Shown here in pieces: positions 2,646 through 6,342 of a DNA stretch of 64,000 bases; position 1 is the stretch's first letter; every line of letters starts with the position of its first letter. The stretch is taken from the NCBI GenBank assembly GCA_041665065.1, contig JBAYJM010000001.1, positions 23,116 through 87,115 of the forward strand, given 5' to 3'. The position numbers and the translations under genes are program-made. This DNA is from Candidatus Buchananbacteria bacterium (GTDB lineage Bacteria > Patescibacteriota > Patescibacteriia > 2-01-FULL-39-33). Under the pieces are notes generated by a model, which did no database searches, was not told where the DNA came from, and saw nothing but the letters and a program-made list of their open reading frames with translations.

Positions 2646-2866
2646 GGCAGATTTTAGTCCAGGCAAAACCCAATTCATCAAAGGTGGAGGTCGAAAAAAT
2701 TACTGATCAAGTATATAAAGTCAGATTAACGGCGCCACCGGTTGATGGCAAAGCAAATGACCAACTTATTAAGGTTTTGGCTCAATATTTTGATGTTAGT
2801 AAGAGCAATATCGCCATAAAAGCTGGAAAAAACGCTAAAACCAAGGTGGTGATAATTTATGGATAA
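2642..2866 (+). CDS. YggU/DUF167 family protein (UPF0235)
   Basis: 74 aa with the characteristic VDGKAND motif. Overlaps the preceding stop by 4 nt. Confidence 0.7.
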   Translation: MRQILVQAKPNSSKVEVEKITDQVYKVRLTAPPVDGKANDQLIKVLAQYFDVSKSNIAIKAGKNAKTKVVIIYG

Positions 2867-2995
2867 GTTGGTTATAACTTAATTGAAAATAAACCATAAA
2901 TCATATATAATTCCTTATGCTGAAGGGAAGTTTTTGGTATTTTGTGTAATTTTGGCCAAAGATTATGAAATGCAGATTATTGTTCAGTTTGTAGC

Positions 2996-3024
2996 TATTG
3001 ACAAAATTTATCATTTGTGATAAT
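2996..3024 (+). promoter_or_regulatory. Consensus sigma70-type promoter TTGACA-17-TAATAT
   Basis: TTGACA at 2996-3001, 17-nt spacer, TAATAT. No ORF follows on the plus strand for about 500 nt. Confidence 0.5.
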
Positions 3025-3030
3025 ATGTTT

Positions 3031-3453
3031 AATCGCAGGTAATTCCCATCCATTGCTCTGCAGGCACGACAAGCATGGGATTATTAATTAAGGACTATTT
3101 TGGTTTTAACGGACTGGAATTCTCCCTTAAAATAATTTCTTGTCTGCAGGGAAATGGATAGCAGTTGAAGCGATAGTATCCGGTAGCCTGTAGGTTAACA
3201 ATTCAATCAAATTTGTCACCTTCCAAAAAAATTTGAGAAAATTTTTATTTCTTCCCGTACGCTTCGGCGGACGGAAAATGCTCGGACGGGCTGATACGGC
3301 TAGGCACGACAAGCATGGGAATTTTATGGGCAATTTCAGGCTACGGCTTGAATCCTGCTCTACAAAATTTTCTTGCCTGGCCATATAAGCCCATCCGAGT
3401 TTAAACCTACAGGCTATCTGATAATATCTCCCCGATTATGTCGGGGTTTTTTG
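3031..3453 (+). ncRNA. Candidate structured ncRNA of unknown class (about 425 nt, promoter-to-terminator)
   Basis: Bounded by a consensus promoter and an intrinsic terminator, with no ORF above 40 codons. Internal direct repeat aggcacgacaagcatggga (3061-3079 and 3303-3321). Long-range complementary segments tagcctgtaggttaa (3183-3197) and ttaaacctacaggcta (3399-3414). A UUCG-capped helix ccgtacgc-ttcg-gcggacgg. Local hairpins ggata...tatcc and tcccat...atggga. Confidence 0.4.
3430..3453 (+). terminator. Intrinsic terminator CCCCGA-ttatg-TCGGGG + TTTTTTG
   Basis: 6-bp GC stem followed by a run of six U on the plus strand. Confidence 0.6.
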
Positions 3454-3517
3454 TTGCTCTATTTCTTGTTTGTAAAATCAAATTATGTTATTATGTATTC
3501 ATAATTGAAAGATAAAA

Positions 3518-3928
3518 ATGAGCACAACCATAAAGAAAAACGATTTTTTTCAAAGCCAAACCGATCATAAAGATGCCGTAGAAGAATGGTATTCTGGTGA
3601 AGGTCAACTGCTTTGCGATGTTTACGAAAGCGGCGATTATTTAATAGTCAAATCTACAATTGCCGGAGTTGATCCTAAAGACATCGATATATCCGTTGCG
3701 CATGATGTTTTGACGATTCGAGGCGTTCGAAAAATGGATGAAGAAATTGAAGATGAAAAATTTTATGCCCGGGAGTGTTATTGGGGTTCGTTTAGCAGGT
3801 CAATAGTTTTGCCTCATGAAATAGATCAAAAAAAAGTTGCAGCAAGTTTAAAAAACGGCGTGCTAACAGTTAAGCTGCCAAAAAAATATAAATCAACATC
3901 GATTAAAATAAGACAGAGCAATGGATGA
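3518..3928 (+). CDS. Small heat shock protein, Hsp20/alpha-crystallin family
   Basis: 136 aa with the alpha-crystallin domain and C-terminal VLTVKLPKK-like motif. Own TTGTTT-17-TATTAT promoter upstream. Confidence 0.85.
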   Translation: MSTTIKKNDFFQSQTDHKDAVEEWYSGEGQLLCDVYESGDYLIVKSTIAGVDPKDIDISVAHDVLTIRGVRKMDEEIEDEKFYARECYWGSFSRSIVLPHEIDQKKVAASLKNGVLTVKLPKKYKSTSIKIRQSNG

Positions 3929-4157
3929 TCAAAAGATAAAATTTTTAACCGGAGTAATTGATAGGATTGAGGGCGAGAAGGCAGTCGTCAGGCTTGATGA
4001 CGGCCAGGAAATTGTTTGGCCAAAAGATAAATTAACATCGGACATAAAAGAGGGATCATCAGTTAAAATAATCGCGCTGGGCGACAATGAAATGGAAGCG
4101 CACAGAGAAGAAATCGCCAAAAACATTTTGAAGGAAATTTTTAAGACAGATGATTAA
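3921..4157 (+). CDS. DUF3006-like small protein
   Basis: 78 aa. VIDRIEGEKAVVRLDDGQEI...P resembles the DUF3006 beta-barrel family. Overlaps the Hsp20 stop. Confidence 0.5.
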   Translation: MDDQKIKFLTGVIDRIEGEKAVVRLDDGQEIVWPKDKLTSDIKEGSSVKIIALGDNEMEAHREEIAKNILKEIFKTDD

Positions 4158-6099
4158 TTTCAAAAAGCTCCTGGAGAAAAGCCGGGAAAACATGGGATCG
4201 GAAGAATCAGGCAGGCAGAAAAAATCCCAAAAATGGTGGCTATTACTAATTATTGTAGTCGCTTTTTTTATAGTTATTGCCTTGGCGATAATCGGCCTTA
4301 TTGTTTTTGAAATAAAATATAAGTACGAATTTTTTCCAGGAAGCAGGATTGGTAATATTTCGCTTGAAGGCCTAAATCGCGAACAGGCATTGGCCTTGAT
4401 AACACCGATGGCCGATAAAATTGAAAGAGACGGAATAGAAATAAGATATCAGAATGATTCGCATAATTTAAATCTGACAGGCACGATTGATTCATTGTCT
4501 GATCCTGACTTATCACGGGAAGTTTTATATTTTGATGAGTACAAAACTATTTATGAATCATTTAAAACGGGTCATGATGGGTCGTTATTTAAAAATATTG
4601 GAGACCAATGGTCGACGTTTTGGGGTGTTAAAAACTTCAAGGCGGATTTTGTCTTGGATGAAGACGCATTAAATAAAATTTTAAAAGCGCAATTTGGAAA
4701 AAATGATCAGTCGCCCAAAAATGCGACTCCGAAAATAACTTGGGCGGGGAATAGCTATAAAATAGAAATTGAAAATGAAAATCCCGGCAGTGAGATTGAT
4801 TATCAAAAGGCCATTGACGATTTAAAAAACAATTTTTTAGAAATTTCAGATAAGCCGATTTTGTTAACACAAAAAATTACTGAGCCGACAGTAACGGCAG
4901 ATGAAATAACCGGCAAAACCGGTGATATCGATTTTGTTTTAAATTCGTCTACGCCAAAATTTTCATACGCAGATAAAAATTGGCAAATGGATAAAAAAAA
5001 GTTATCACAAATGATCGAATTTCAGAAAGTTGATAACGAAATTAAATTGGGTTTAAATCACGATCTATTTATAAAGTGGTTTACTGATACTATTTCAGCT
5101 CAAATTAATGTCGAGCCCAAAAATGCGCAGATAGAAATCAAAGACGGACAAGCCACAAAAATTTCCACCCATCAGGAAGGATTGAAAGCTGATGCGGAAA
5201 AGGCCTACGCTGATGTTCAGGGCAGATTAATGACAGCACAGTGGCCGGTTGCCGTTGAAGTGGTAAAAATTGCTCCGGATGTGGCAACTGATAATATCAA
5301 TGACATGGGCATTAAAGAAATTATCGGCGTTGGCGAGTCTGATTTTAAAGGCAGTCCAAGCAACAGGATTCATAACATTAAAAATGGTGCTAGCAAAGTG
5401 CATGGAATTTTAATTAAGCCCGGCGAAGAATTCTCTTTGATAAATACTTTAGGAGAAGTTGAAAAATCAACAGGATATTTGCCAGAGCTGGTTATCAAGG
5501 GCAATAAGACAATGCCTGAATATGGCGGCGGGCTTTGCCAAGTCGGGACGACAATGTTTAGAGCGGCGATGGGATCGGGTCTGCCAATAACTGAAAGGCG
5601 CAATCATTCATATAATGTTACTTATTATTTGGAAAATGGTTTGCCGGGAGTTGATGCTACAATCTATATTCCTCATCCTGATGTTAGATTTATAAACAAT
5701 ACTGGAAATTATGTTTTAATTCAGACTAGGGTAGAAGGTACTAAATTAAAGTTTGAATTTTGGGGCACAAAGGATGGCAGACAGGCTACAAGGACAAAGC
5801 CCAAGGCTTGGGACTGGGTTTCACCTCCGCCTACAAAATATGTTGAAACAACAGAATTAAAGCCAGGACAAAAGAAATGCACGGAAAGCGCCCATAAAGG
5901 CGTTAAGGCTTCATTTGATTATATTGTCACTTCAACTGACGGAACAGTAAAAAGACAGAATTTTTATTCGGTATACAAGCCCTGGCAGGCAGTTTGTTTG
6001 ATTGGCGTTGACCCGAATAAGGCCGTTGCAACCAGTACCGAAGTAATAATCGGAACGCCTGAAAATCCCGTGACAACTACTACTAGTGTTAGTAATTAA
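4150..6099 (+). CDS. VanW family protein, membrane anchored
   Basis: 649 aa with an N-terminal TM helix. Carries the VanW core motif GYLPELVIKGNKTMPEYGGGLCQVGTTMFRAAM. Confidence 0.75.
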   Translation: MINFKKLLEKSRENMGSEESGRQKKSQKWWLLLIIVVAFFIVIALAIIGLIVFEIKYKYEFFPGSRIGNISLEGLNREQALALITPMADKIERDGIEIRYQNDSHNLNLTGTIDSLSDPDLSREVLYFDEYKTIYESFKTGHDGSLFKNIGDQWSTFWGVKNFKADFVLDEDALNKILKAQFGKNDQSPKNATPKITWAGNSYKIEIENENPGSEIDYQKAIDDLKNNFLEISDKPILLTQKITEPTVTADEITGKTGDIDFVLNSSTPKFSYADKNWQMDKKKLSQMIEFQKVDNEIKLGLNHDLFIKWFTDTISAQINVEPKNAQIEIKDGQATKISTHQEGLKADAEKAYADVQGRLMTAQWPVAVEVVKIAPDVATDNINDMGIKEIIGVGESDFKGSPSNRIHNIKNGASKVHGILIKPGEEFSLINTLGEVEKSTGYLPELVIKGNKTMPEYGGGLCQVGTTMFRAAMGSGLPITERRNHSYNVTYYLENGLPGVDATIYIPHPDVRFINNTGNYVLIQTRVEGTKLKFEFWGTKDGRQATRTKPKAWDWVSPPPTKYVETTELKPGQKKCTESAHKGVKASFDYIVTSTDGTVKRQNFYSVYKPWQAVCLIGVDPNKAVATSTEVIIGTPENPVTTTTSVSN

Positions 6100-6255: not shown

Positions 6256-6327
6256 GCGGCCATCGTCTAACGGTTAGGACGCCAGGTTTTCATCCTGGTA
6301 ATCGGGGTTCGATTCCCCGTGGCCGTA
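6256..6327 (+). tRNA. tRNA-Glu (anticodon UUC)
   Basis: Cloverleaf: acceptor GCGGCCA/TGGCCGT, D-arm GTCTAACGGTTAGGAC, anticodon stem CCAGG/CCTGG with loop TTTTCAT (anticodon TTC), T-arm CGGGGTTCGATTCCCCG. CCA is not encoded. Confidence 0.85.
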
Positions 6328-6342
6328 CTACTATTTTCAAAA

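Follow-up and report, generated by a model that had tools for sequence, protein, structure and literature searches.

What kind of gene lies between the promoter and terminator signals at 2998-3452 of the window, as we call the whole 64-kb stretch of DNA analyzed here, and what might its product do? A first-pass annotation had described a promoter-to-terminator structured non-coding RNA of no recognized class. Our analysis supports that description, and the compensatory changes found in homologues strengthen it. The two signals that delimit the locus are:

2998..3026, plus strand: promoter, with a -35 element TTGACA at 2998-3003, a 17-nt spacer and a TG-extended -10 element TAATAT at 3021-3026.
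3430..3452, plus strand: intrinsic terminator, a 7-bp stem that includes 5 G-C pairs, capped by a 3-nt loop and followed by a T6 run.

The consensus promoter TTGACA-17-TAATAT claimed earlier is thus present and carries a TG extension; the inferred transcription start lies at about 3033. Taken alone, it is not significant, as promoter-like sites number 7 versus 4.3 +/- 2.0 in shuffles. In the homologous two-domain loci described below, an invariant -35 TTGAC and an extended -10 occupy the equivalent position in 10 of 10 cases. The strong intrinsic terminator also held up, as a stem-loop at 3430-3446 followed by the T-run, and most two-domain homologues have a hairpin and U-run at the equivalent place. 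The fold energy is -160.8 kcal/mol, compared to -105.3 +/- 6.2 by chance (z = -8.9). Judged by these sequence features, the region 2998-3452 is probably an independently transcribed, non-coding and highly structured RNA gene with a putative transcript of ~420 nt.

The earlier statement puts a limit of about 36 codons on open reading frames in the region. This is incorrect: an ATG frame of 85 codons occupies the minus strand at 3127-3384, and two TTG frames of 51 codons (3233-3388) and 43 codons (3373-3504) lie on the plus strand. None of the three has a Pfam match, none is conserved in strand, frame or position among 10 homologues, and the gene caller used on the matching public contig called no gene in the region. 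An AUG within the bulge described below opens no conserved frame (the median frame of 16.5 codons is like that of other frames).

Upon close examination of the fold, the RNA resolves into two similar halves. Two 19-mers, at 3062-3080 and 3302-3320, are identical (0.00 expected by chance), in agreement with the 19-nt direct repeat annotated before at 3061/3303. They are part of a longer duplication, made of repeat families D1-D3 with a spacing of 233-240 nt, and the repeat marks two paralogous hairpin domains of ~130 nt. The predicted architecture, in order along the RNA, is:

3041..3166, plus strand: domain 1, a long irregular hairpin of outer stem, P2, bulge, P3 and apical hairpin; one family unit.
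3067..3076, plus strand: bulge 1, CGACAAGCAU; on the opposite strand UUUCUUG at 3136-3142, with a single bulged U at 3141.
3172..3196, plus strand: 5' arm of the long-range helix, in inverted repeat I2; the helix encloses the linker and domain 2.
3211..3225, plus strand: linker element 1, AUUUGUCACCUUCCA; predicted hairpin loop or single strand.
3232..3252, plus strand: linker element 2, UUUGAGAAAAUUUUUAUUUCU; nearly invariant, with a small 4-bp hairpin GAGA/UCUY inside.
3255..3274, plus strand: UUCG-capped hairpin of 7 pairs and one A.G mismatch.
3281..3399, plus strand: domain 2, in which the family unit recurs, with covariation support.
3307..3316, plus strand: bulge 2, CGACAAGCAU, with the same closing pairs as bulge 1 and UUUCUUG at 3369-3375 opposite.
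3404..3428, plus strand: 3' arm of the long-range helix, pairing with 3172-3196.

Inverted repeat I1, the minimum free energy structure and covariation all support the domain 1 hairpin, and the sequence differences between domains 1 and 2 are compensatory. The closing pairs of bulge 1 are C-G and A-U toward P2, and G-C, G.U and G.U toward P3. Both domains contain the elements that define the family: a P2 ending in C-G, A-U, the 10-nt bulge CGACAAGCAU, a P3 starting with G-C, G.U, G.U, and a lone U that bulges from the 3' strand. A covariance model of the family unit finds exactly two copies in the 64-kb window, domain 1 (match 3035-3176, 93.8 bits, E = 5e-29) and domain 2 (3275-3409, 102.2 bits, E = 7e-32), a result that is partly by construction because the 122 units of the model include both window domains. 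We assign both domains to the family on the basis of the exact motif and of the covarying structure that they share with it. The tandem duplication of one domain, and the large family that this domain defines, were missed in the first-pass annotation.

The long-range arms had been recognized before, but they are 25 nt long and 88% complementary rather than 15 nt, and the second arm had been placed at 3399-3414, about 5 nt off. Likewise, the UUCG-capped hairpin exists, though with 7 pairs and an A.G mismatch instead of the 8 clean pairs first described; homologues carry either no hairpin at this position or one whose sequence is unrelated, which makes it a variable insertion. Linker element 1 (AUUUGUCACCUUCCA) is nearly invariant among two-domain RNAs, and TTGTCACCTTCC is restricted to two-domain loci. 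We considered the two linker elements as an internal promoter for domain 2 (TTGTCA-18-GAAAAT) and rejected it because the distance between them varies from 11 to 32 nt among genomes. An anti-Shine-Dalgarno seed in the linker (CACCUUCC) is a weak proposal, as the leaders of the window's genes are A/T-rich with almost no Shine-Dalgarno motif, and no extended target for CACCUUCC was found in the window.

The two-domain form occurs in nine further genomes, those named being Buchananbacteria. Their alignment with the window RNA (10 genomes) contains 106 pairs, of which 55 show compensatory changes. The long-range helix, 21-25 bp in length, has compensatory changes at 17 of 21 pairs across these genomes, and its cells are paired in 92.4% of cases compared to 76.1% in shuffles and 28-38% when the arms are slid. 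In the Buchananbacteria-like lineage of the window, the family unit was duplicated and its second copy enclosed by the long-range helix, and an invariant single-stranded linker (AUUUGUCACCUUCCA ... UUGAGAAAAUUUUUAU) was gained.

Beyond the two-domain form, the unit is an irregular hairpin of 110-130 nt, usually single-domain, with its own promoter-like signal and a stem followed by a U-run. We found it in at least 119 genomes (a lower bound) of the ultra-small CPR/Patescibacteria, in five named candidate phyla (Parcubacteria-group lineages). Among the matches listed, single-domain loci have a T5+ run within 90 nt downstream in 93 of 105 cases, 78 of the 105 are preceded by an extended -10-like site, compared to 30 in control windows, and 109 of 119 carry a single locus per 8-kb stretch. 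Homologues in related CPR genomes were the check that the first-pass annotation had proposed, and they bear it out with abundant compensatory changes: 26 of the 34 consensus pairs have them, 91.1% of cells are paired compared to 69.8% in shuffles, and the covariation score is 0.576 versus 0.197 in shuffles (0 of 500 reach 0.576) and 0.09-0.22 when slid. The invariant G.U pairs would become A.C mismatches on the opposite strand, which identifies the plus strand as the RNA strand.

In the predicted structures the bulge is exposed, with an unpaired probability of 0.80-0.97 per nucleotide across the 122 family members; an alternative register within the loop, CAAG/CUUG, has a probability of 0.008. 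The internal loop is strongly asymmetric, 10 nt facing a single U, and lies ~25-30 bp from the tip, where the apical loop is variable in both sequence and length. Columns 71/92 of the apical hairpin are G.U in 122 of 122 members and columns 72/91 G-C in 117 of 122, and these columns lay outside the search pattern. The genome scan itself demanded 15 + 7 core nucleotides, so that the invariance of the core across the at least 119 loci is partly by construction; true invariance can be read only from copies that the search did not force, namely six domain-1 copies, the 3' half of L128 (a standard family member) and strand B of a phage copy. In the six genomes concerned, domain 1 deviates from the search pattern in P3 and strand B, and the bulge is unchanged.

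We also compared the RNA with known classes. Rfam 15 (4227 models) at gathering thresholds matched only a tRNA-Glu at 6256-6327 in the whole window; at E <= 10 on 2850-3550, the best match (E = 0.11) covered the terminator hairpin only; and the element went unmatched in 100 of the related loci. A tmRNA, which would combine a tRNA-like domain with a tag reading frame, is found in the window neither by ARAGORN nor by Rfam, and no model of RNase P RNA, the class marked by the P4/CR-I to CR-V core, matches the element even at E <= 10, in line with the absence of both and of any recognized class that had been noted from the sequence. A full-text literature search that included the motif string returned no report of such an RNA or of an equivalent CPR non-coding RNA. 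TIGR-Tas arrays, known from CPR and phages, have 36-nt units and Tas protein neighbors (PMC12045711) and are unrelated to the family. The window RNA is thus a tandem two-domain member of a previously undescribed CPR/Patescibacteria small-RNA family; the family is new at the level of RNA class, in that no known family fits, whereas structured bacterial small RNAs are familiar as a general kind. That it is a real structured RNA gene and belongs to the family we regard as close to certain.

Genomic context provides insight into its mode of action. Among the matches listed, the next downstream gene lies on the other strand, in a convergent arrangement, in 97 of 111 loci, and the upstream genes vary; the RNA is therefore not a 5' leader, and an action in trans is highly probable. 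The operon that adjoins the family is Hsp20-(DUF3006)-VanW, usually convergent. Among the matches listed, VanW and Hsp20 homologues lie downstream in 54 of the 68 loci with at least 3 kb of sequence there (79%), and the remaining 14 of 68 have no Hsp20-VanW operon nearby. ClpP, RNase J or rRNA genes also often adjoin family loci. These neighbors point to stress, proteostasis or ribosome-related physiology, and the synteny with the Hsp20-VanW operon could also be an inherited gene order with no functional link. VanW-type proteins are extracytoplasmic and hence poor candidates. DUF3006 was set aside as an RNA-binding partner because its sole PDB sequence match, to an Spt5 KOW domain, is non-significant (E = 0.64), and its gene is missing from some operons, such as that of L015.

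The best overall explanation, to which we assign a probability of roughly 0.5, is that the RNA acts in trans through its bulge, which would be recognized by an unvarying partner, most likely a protein. The bulge and its flanking helices would form a three-dimensional recognition site for a partner that is invariant across phyla, and the RNA would serve either as the RNA part of a ribonucleoprotein or as a decoy or sponge, of which the two-domain form would offer two binding sites. That the partner is a protein is, taken by itself, a proposition to which we give slightly less than even odds. The six deviating domain-1 copies, in which the bulge is kept while its surroundings change, lend support to a structure-specific partner. 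Sponge RNAs such as CsrB/RsmZ typically carry their binding site in tandem copies, and repeating one recognition motif per transcript raises their valency; by analogy, the two sites of the window RNA may support a protein partner. The likeness has limits: the family lacks GGA hairpin-loop motifs, has two sites at most and in most members one, and we found no link to CsrA.

A copy on one phage contig bears on the same question. It is a circularly permuted minimal hairpin that consists of the conserved loop alone. Apart from the bulge, it retains CUUUCUUG on the opposite strand, including the bulged U, together with the G.U pairs; the first search had required none of these additional features. 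Their retention again supports a structure-specific partner. In viral and metagenome scans, the permuted form was found in one phage lineage only (L001, identical to L129, with the hairpin at 3970-4035 of L001, and L127); further candidates (L004-L006 and L126) proved to be chance matches in coding DNA. Phages are known to mimic host RNAs, as with the pseudo-ToxI repeats that allow escape from ToxIN, and the phage hairpin, as a minimal host-RNA loop, is by that analogy consistent with a decoy for the same partner as that of the host RNA. Unlike in that system, no toxin or defense gene is linked to the host RNA, and the phage copy is circularly permuted and confined to one lineage.

An exposed invariant bulge is equally what one would expect of a base-pairing seed. 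As an mRNA seed it fares poorly, as we found no complement in the window beyond chance, no extra occurrences in ~0.9 Mb of loci and no enrichment upstream of 70 Hsp20 genes. Against rRNA there is one match, which we treat as a lead only: the bulge extended by a nucleotide at either end, 5'-ACGACAAGCAUG-3', can form 11 of 12 Watson-Crick pairs with CAUGGUUGUCGU in the one complete 16S gene tested, from an RNA-carrying genome (L072). The RNA could accordingly be aimed at the ribosome, where its bulge would pair with one strand of helix 34 in 16S rRNA, the 5' strand (E. coli 1054-1065), or, equivalently, mimic the 3' strand; it would then act in assembly or quality control of the 30S head or lure a helix-34-binding factor as a decoy. 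A match this good is reached by only 0.3-0.4% of shuffled 12-mers, and an unchanging rRNA partner would account for an unchanging bulge. rRNA genes, moreover, lie within 9 of ~100 scanned 8-kb loci (~1 estimated by chance), with the RNA in L034 beginning 345 nt after a 5S rRNA on the same strand, and among the matches listed RNase J lies upstream in 13 loci and a NusB-like gene, identified by eye, in 8.

However, the 12-nt window was picked after the match had been seen; the 10-nt bulge alone matches at 9 of 10, with p = 0.03 against 16S and 0.13 against 16S plus 23S, and a G.G mismatch interrupts the pairing at its center. The 16S strand in question is itself paired within helix 34 once the 30S subunit is mature. 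Pairing would also leave unexplained why the opposite strand with its bulged U, and the G.U pairs, persist in the permuted phage copy, and the proximity to rRNA genes is partly due to the shared ancestry of related genomes. With strict thresholds, we found no segment of E. coli rRNA that the RNA would mimic or complement. The nearest parallel to such a reading is eukaryotic U3 snoRNA, also trans-acting, in which a conserved single-stranded box pairs with small-subunit rRNA and times helix formation, although the complementarity here is 11 of 12 with a mismatch and was found post hoc. We therefore consider pairing with helix 34 unlikely. If true, it would make the family a bacterial trans-acting RNA that pairs with rRNA, for which we know of no bacterial precedent. 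A wider formulation, which we hold to be doubtful though somewhat less so, covers both targets: the RNA may be a component or regulator of a lineage-specific ribonucleoprotein or ribosome-linked process common to several CPR phyla, with either a conserved protein or the helix 34 5' strand bound by the bulge and with phages countering or exploiting it by a permuted decoy.

The frequent convergence with the Hsp20-VanW operon suggests another reading, in which the hairpin serves mainly as a bidirectional terminator shared by the two transcription units and the 3' end of the operon carries the RNA's antisense, so that the two transcripts titrate each other. Among the matches listed, 72 of the 82 loci with a VanW homologue have the operon convergent with its stop codon ~0-100 nt from the RNA 3' end, and about half of the family members have an A-run/U-run at the base of the outer stem (columns 8-10/143-145 are A-U in 51-70 of 122), as bidirectional terminators do. 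This would leave the invariant bulge, the conserved apical G.U, the dedicated promoter and the phage copy unexplained, and an antisense strand turns the G.U pairs into A.C mismatches. In addition, the operon is co-directional and downstream in the window, in L114 and in a few other loci, and it is absent from the vicinity of the 14 loci noted above, among the matches listed. We regard such a cis-antisense module as quite improbable.

The third alternative is a divergent SRP 4.5S or 6S housekeeping RNA that the Rfam models fail to recognize in this lineage. SRP 4.5S RNA, in which helix 8 bears a GNAR tetraloop and conserved symmetric and asymmetric loops, resembles the family in being a free-standing hairpin of ~110 nt, typically single-copy, with paired 5' and 3' ends and a conserved asymmetric internal loop, which in SRP RNA is the Ffh binding site; 6S RNA, which works by binding the RNA polymerase holoenzyme and templates pRNA, is likewise a free-standing long hairpin with an internal unpaired region. 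The resemblance extends to a dedicated promoter and terminator and to copy number, mostly one at each locus (109 of 119 listed). No SRP or 6S RNA turned up in ~0.8 Mb of related DNA, which says little as only about one was expected. By contrast, neither the SRP nor the 6S model matches the element with a cut-off of E <= 10, or any of 8 loci scanned at E <= 0.1. No locus contains the SRP core CCGGAAGGAAGCAGC, nor does the window when up to 2 mismatches are allowed, and the family lacks both a GNAR tetraloop and a symmetric loop, its conserved loop sitting far from a variable tip. 6S RNA, at ~180 nt compared to 110-130 nt, depends on a large central bubble, open on both strands and flanked by long helices, as its mimic of open promoter DNA, whereas the family places 10 nt opposite a single U. 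The chance that the family belongs to either class thus appears slight.

A cis-regulatory leader of Hsp20, be it a tandem riboswitch or an RNA thermosensor in which read-through of 3430-3452 controls Hsp20, is suggested by the window, where Hsp20 follows the RNA after 65 nt in the same orientation and two homologous structured domains followed by an intrinsic terminator recall tandem-aptamer riboswitches such as that for glycine. Such leaders occupy a same-strand 5' UTR with a conserved gene association. Instead, the next gene is mostly on the other strand among the matches listed, the Hsp20 operon is convergent in most two-domain relatives, we found no ligand-related gene context, and no complement of the bulge occurs upstream of the 70 Hsp20 genes. 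Hsp20 also has, by eye, a TG-extended -10-like site of its own (TGTTATTAT, 3486-3494), 3' of the terminator. A leader function is therefore scarcely credible. Finally, a MITE-like mobile element bounded by inverted repeats, the alternative raised by the first-pass annotation, or a small protein gene has next to no probability: the 25-nt inverted repeats 207 nt apart show covariation between species (17 of 21 pairs) at a single syntenic position, not conservation of sequence, and this excludes a MITE; the promoter is conserved, no flanking duplications are present, and there is a single locus in the 64-kb window and one per 8-kb stretch in 109 of 119 among the matches listed, while the 85-codon minus-strand frame is, like the others, unconserved and without a Pfam match, and the core, at 72-86 nt, does not keep to lengths divisible by three.

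A large part of bacterial diversity belongs to CPR/Patescibacteria, which have reduced genomes and unusual ribosomes and in which, to our knowledge, almost no non-coding RNAs beyond the universal ones have been characterized. The family offers a natural comparison of one-domain with two-domain forms, a phage-borne minimal version that defines the functional core, and a conserved genomic link to a small-heat-shock/cell-wall operon. A small RNA common to at least five candidate phyla, with a conserved exposed loop, implies an important conserved partner.

A DUF167 gene (2642-2866) precedes the interval 2996-3453 of the window and an Hsp20 gene (3518-3928) follows it, with plus-strand orientation throughout. 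The first-pass annotation read it as a structured RNA bounded by a promoter and a terminator, and this reading held: the RNA is real and belongs to a wider family of small RNAs in the CPR.

Features of the window RNA (window positions, plus strand)
2998-3026, promoter TTGACA-17-TAATAT with a TG extension (consensus scan)
3041-3166, hairpin domain 1
3172-3196 with 3404-3428, long-range helix enclosing the linker and domain 2, conserved in two-domain loci
3211-3225, linker element 1, AUUUGUCACCUUCCA, nearly invariant in two-domain loci
from 3233, linker element 2, UUGAGAAAAUUUUUAU, nearly invariant in two-domain loci
3281-3399, hairpin domain 2
3430-3446, terminator, a 7-bp G+C-rich stem-loop followed by T6 (consensus scan)

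The promoter-to-terminator RNA folds at -160.8 kcal/mol versus -105.3 +/- 6.2 in dinucleotide shuffles (z = -8.9). Because the opposite strand is almost equally stable (z = -8.65), fold energy alone cannot assign the strand. Three direct-repeat families, all with a spacing of 233-240 nt, run through the RNA, and the 19-mer AGGCACGACAAGCAUGGGA occurs exactly twice (chance expectation 0.00). Upon aligning and folding both halves, we obtained a pair of paralogous hairpin domains, each about 130 nt long, and the 19-nt direct repeat already recognized in the first pass is part of this duplication. Each domain consists of an outer stem, helix P2 (ending ...GGCA/UGYC...), the 10-nt bulge CGACAAGCAU, helix P3 (GGGA.../...UUUC, whose 3' strand has one bulged U) and an apical hairpin. 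Differences between the domains are compensatory, for example in P2 (CUGCAG/CUGCAG versus GGCUAG/CUGGCC) and P3 (U-A to A-U).

Scanning one genome per species with the exact pattern CACGACAAGCATGGG-N35-65-TTTCTTG, we found at least 119 matching loci. The named carriers among the matches listed are all Patescibacteria of the Parcubacteria group (Falkow-, Uhr-, Komeili-, Buchanan- and Kerfeldbacteria), and Buchananbacteria and Uhrbacteria are separate candidate phyla by NCBI rank. Many loci (L009, L011, L013 and some 55 others) come from MAGs titled 'uncultured Gammaproteobacteria bacterium' (TPA binchicken, SRP co-assemblies); these records share CPR RNA subtypes and CPR-like gene order, and their titles look like placeholder labels or errors. 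Most genomes carry a single domain of 110-130 nt with a U-run directly after the outer stem. Among the 105 single-domain loci listed, 93 have a T5+ run at most 90 nt downstream (median 20 nt past the core), and 78 have an extended -10-like site upstream, versus 30 in control windows. One 8-kb stretch (L049) carries two separate core copies on its minus strand, about 4.5 kb apart and not a tandem two-domain RNA.

The covariation that the first-pass annotation had proposed checking for in CPR relatives is present. In an alignment of 122 family units that includes both window domains, RNAalifold gave 34 consensus pairs, 26 of them compensatory. On this consensus 91.1% of paired cells can pair, versus 69.8% after column shuffling; the covariation score of 0.576 versus 0.197 in shuffles was reached by none of 500 shuffles, and sliding the structure by 1-3 columns gave 0.09-0.22. 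P3 contains invariant G.U pairs, and in the apical helix an invariant G.U precedes a G-C pair that is present in 117 of the 122 units. Read from the opposite strand, these G.U pairs would be A.C mismatches, which identifies the plus strand as the RNA strand. In all units the bulge is predicted to be unpaired, with a probability of 0.80-0.97 per nucleotide. The scan pattern imposed 15 and 7 core nucleotides, so that their invariance among the at least 119 loci is partly by construction; the apical G.U/G-C lies outside the pattern, and its conservation is thus genuine. Six domain-1 copies, likewise unforced, diverge in P3 and strand B (CAUAGGA, UUUCUUUG) and keep the bulge CGACAAGCAU. A covariance model built from the alignment matches the 64-kb window at exactly two places, with scores of 93.8 and 102.2 bits. 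We show here that the window element is a non-coding RNA gene of its own, whose structured product exposes an invariant bulge, and our confidence in the gene and its structure is high.

The same promoter-to-terminator, two-domain architecture occurs in nine other genomes among the loci listed (the Buchananbacteria L031, L036, L071 and L114, together with L009, L011, L100, L104 and L109), whose proteins adjoining the RNA share only 40-79% identity with their window counterparts. A -35 TTGAC with an extended -10, both domains and the long-range helix are conserved. Of the 106 pairs in the two-domain consensus, 55 are compensatory. Compensatory changes affect 17 of the 21 pairs in the long-range helix, where 92.4% of paired cells can pair, versus 76.1% in shuffles and 28-38% when slid. 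Such covariation marks an RNA helix and is not what transposon ends show, which makes the initially offered alternative of a MITE bounded by these inverted repeats very unlikely. A UUCG hairpin noted earlier (3255-3274) is present in the window but is a variable insertion, with an unrelated hairpin or none in homologues.

Both linker elements are confined to two-domain RNAs among the loci listed. Because the gap between them varies from 11 to 32 nt across the two-domain genomes, the resemblance of the linker to a promoter is not meaningful. The linker loop CACCUUCC resembles an anti-Shine-Dalgarno sequence; we found no target for it, and among the window genes (51 long ORFs) SD motifs are almost absent and leaders are A/T-rich. 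In L104, the linker element UCACCUUC(C) is duplicated at 3540-3575 (..TATCACCTTCCATAAATTTGTCACCTTC..). The Hsp20 start codon in L104 and L009 lies only about 6-8 nt past a TATAAT box, which suggests that some relatives may use leaderless mRNAs. Several two-domain loci share a perfect palindrome of conserved sequence, TTCCGCTAAATTTAGCGGAA, roughly 35 nt before the -35 box (L104 3278-3295, L109 1534-1551, L009 160-176, L100 6027-6043); absent from the window, it may be an operator or may terminate transcription of the DUF167 gene upstream.

A further copy, also unforced evidence for bulge invariance, is found in a phage. The 90-kb viral contig L001 (IMGVR_UViG_3300029288_000128; L129 is identical and L127 nearly so) encodes a DnaB-like helicase, an HNH endonuclease, a DPBB lytic transglycosylase and an HU-like protein. 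Its intergenic hairpin at 3970-4035, downstream of the lytic-transglycosylase gene and a small ORF, reads GGUGAGCGACA-CUUUCUUGCACA-GCAA-UGUGCACGACAAGCAUGGGGAUGU-UGUCGUUCACC and is the family's internal loop in circular permutation: the tetraloop caps P2, and P3 runs to the open end. The opposite-strand CUUUCUUG, the bulged U and the G.U pairs, which the first search did not demand, are all kept. Because the apical domain is missing, the loop and its two flanking helices seem to be the functional core, recognized as a structure. The phage hairpin could be a decoy for the partner of the host RNA. Further viral and metagenome scans yielded no other permuted lineage.

We infer that the RNA acts in trans through its exposed bulge. 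Our confidence in action in trans is good; that the partner is a protein is the reading we tentatively favor, with a probability of roughly 45%. Four observations argue for it: the permuted phage copy still has the non-Watson-Crick features at the loop (the tandem G.U and the bulged U), another conserved G.U element lies near the tip, the helices covary freely and the loop does not, and sponge or scaffold RNAs likewise repeat a binding site in a single transcript. Small heat-shock proteins can bind RNA, as in E. coli, where IbpA represses both its own mRNA and that of rpoH (PMC10474464, PMC10410725), which makes the neighboring Hsp20 a conceivable partner.

The main rival, which we consider unlikely, is that the bulge pairs with the 5' strand of 16S rRNA helix 34. 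In the one complete 16S gene from a carrier genome that we compared (L072, 319-1802, minus strand), 16S positions 1024-1035 would pair with window positions 3066-3077 and 3306-3317, which span the bulge and a flanking nucleotide at either end: 5'-ACGACAAGCAUG-3' is complementary at 11 of 12 positions to CAUGGUUGUCGU (E. coli 1054-1065). Viewed differently, the bulge region resembles the 3' strand of helix 34 minus 4 nt (ACGUCAAAUCAGCAUGG versus ACGACAA----GCAUGG). Only 0.3-0.4% of shuffled 12-mers match as well or better, but these 12 nt were picked post hoc, and p is 0.03 to 0.13 when the 10-nt bulge is compared by itself. If the partner were an invariant rRNA, this would account well for an invariant bulge and for the nearby rRNA and RNase J genes (and a NusB-like gene assigned by eye), yet it would leave the conserved opposite strand unexplained. 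We found rRNA genes inside 9 of about 100 scanned 8-kb loci (L034 945-1481, L023, L046, L007, L018, L019, L072, L121 and L056) versus about one estimated by chance for genomes of about 1 Mb, events that are non-independent because related genomes share arrangements. In L034 the RNA starts 345 nt past the 5S rRNA on the same strand. The 23S gene of L023 contains two group I introns.

The genes around the RNA bear on the remaining readings. Among the loci listed, 97 of 111 have their next downstream gene in the opposite orientation, and upstream genes are diverse, which together indicate that the RNA is not a leader. Clustering the upstream neighbors gave ClpP (16 loci), RNase J (13), metallophosphoesterase (5) and, labeled by eye only, NusB-like (8) and SMC-like (7) proteins; in example loci, the ClpP, RNase J, VanW, Hsp20 and DAGK assignments were confirmed by Pfam. 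One family, PG_binding_4 plus VanW, supplies 58 of the 111 downstream neighbors, and VanW and Hsp20 homologues both lie downstream in 54 of the 68 listed loci where the sequence extends at least 3 kb past the RNA. Usually the plus-strand RNA is followed by VanW, (DUF3006) and Hsp20, which are encoded on the minus strand and converge on it; that the two share a bidirectional terminator, or form an antisense module, is a less likely reading. In the window and L114 the operon is inverted and thus follows the RNA co-directionally, which explains why the window element looked like an Hsp20 leader, itself a less likely reading. The recurrent operon Hsp20, (DUF3006), PG_binding_4+VanW(+G5), at 3518-6099 in the window and in most loci, joins a small heat-shock protein and a cell-wall-binding protein, an unusual pairing. 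A tRNA-Glu(UUC) gene (6256-6328) lies just past the window's VanW gene; L104 and L109 also have a tRNA about 2.8-3.2 kb downstream of the RNA, so local synteny reaches beyond the operon.

A small protein gene is less likely: contrary to the initial statement that no ORF exceeds about 36 codons, ORFs of 85 (minus strand, 3127-3384), 51 and 43 codons overlap 2996-3453, but none has a Pfam match or is kept among homologues, and the gene caller calls nothing in the equivalent interval of the matching public contig L002. ARAGORN finds no tmRNA in the window, in line with the earlier reading. Rfam 15 provides no family for the element, with no match at gathering thresholds and sub-threshold matches at E <= 10 confined to the terminator hairpin. 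SRP 4.5S and 6S RNA resemble the family in form only, as hairpin scaffolds presenting a conserved loop, and a divergent version of either is less likely. The two-domain version resembles a sponge RNA, and a tandem riboswitch in architecture only; the RNA lacks those defining features of each compared family that were tested. The TIGR-Tas RNAs of CPR and phages are unrelated. Full-text searches of the literature, both on non-coding RNAs of the CPR and with the motif string, found no description. We rate the RNA as a new class whose structure is real and well supported. Far from being an isolated case, the window RNA is a member, in tandem two-domain form, of a widespread family of CPR small RNAs that had not been described before.
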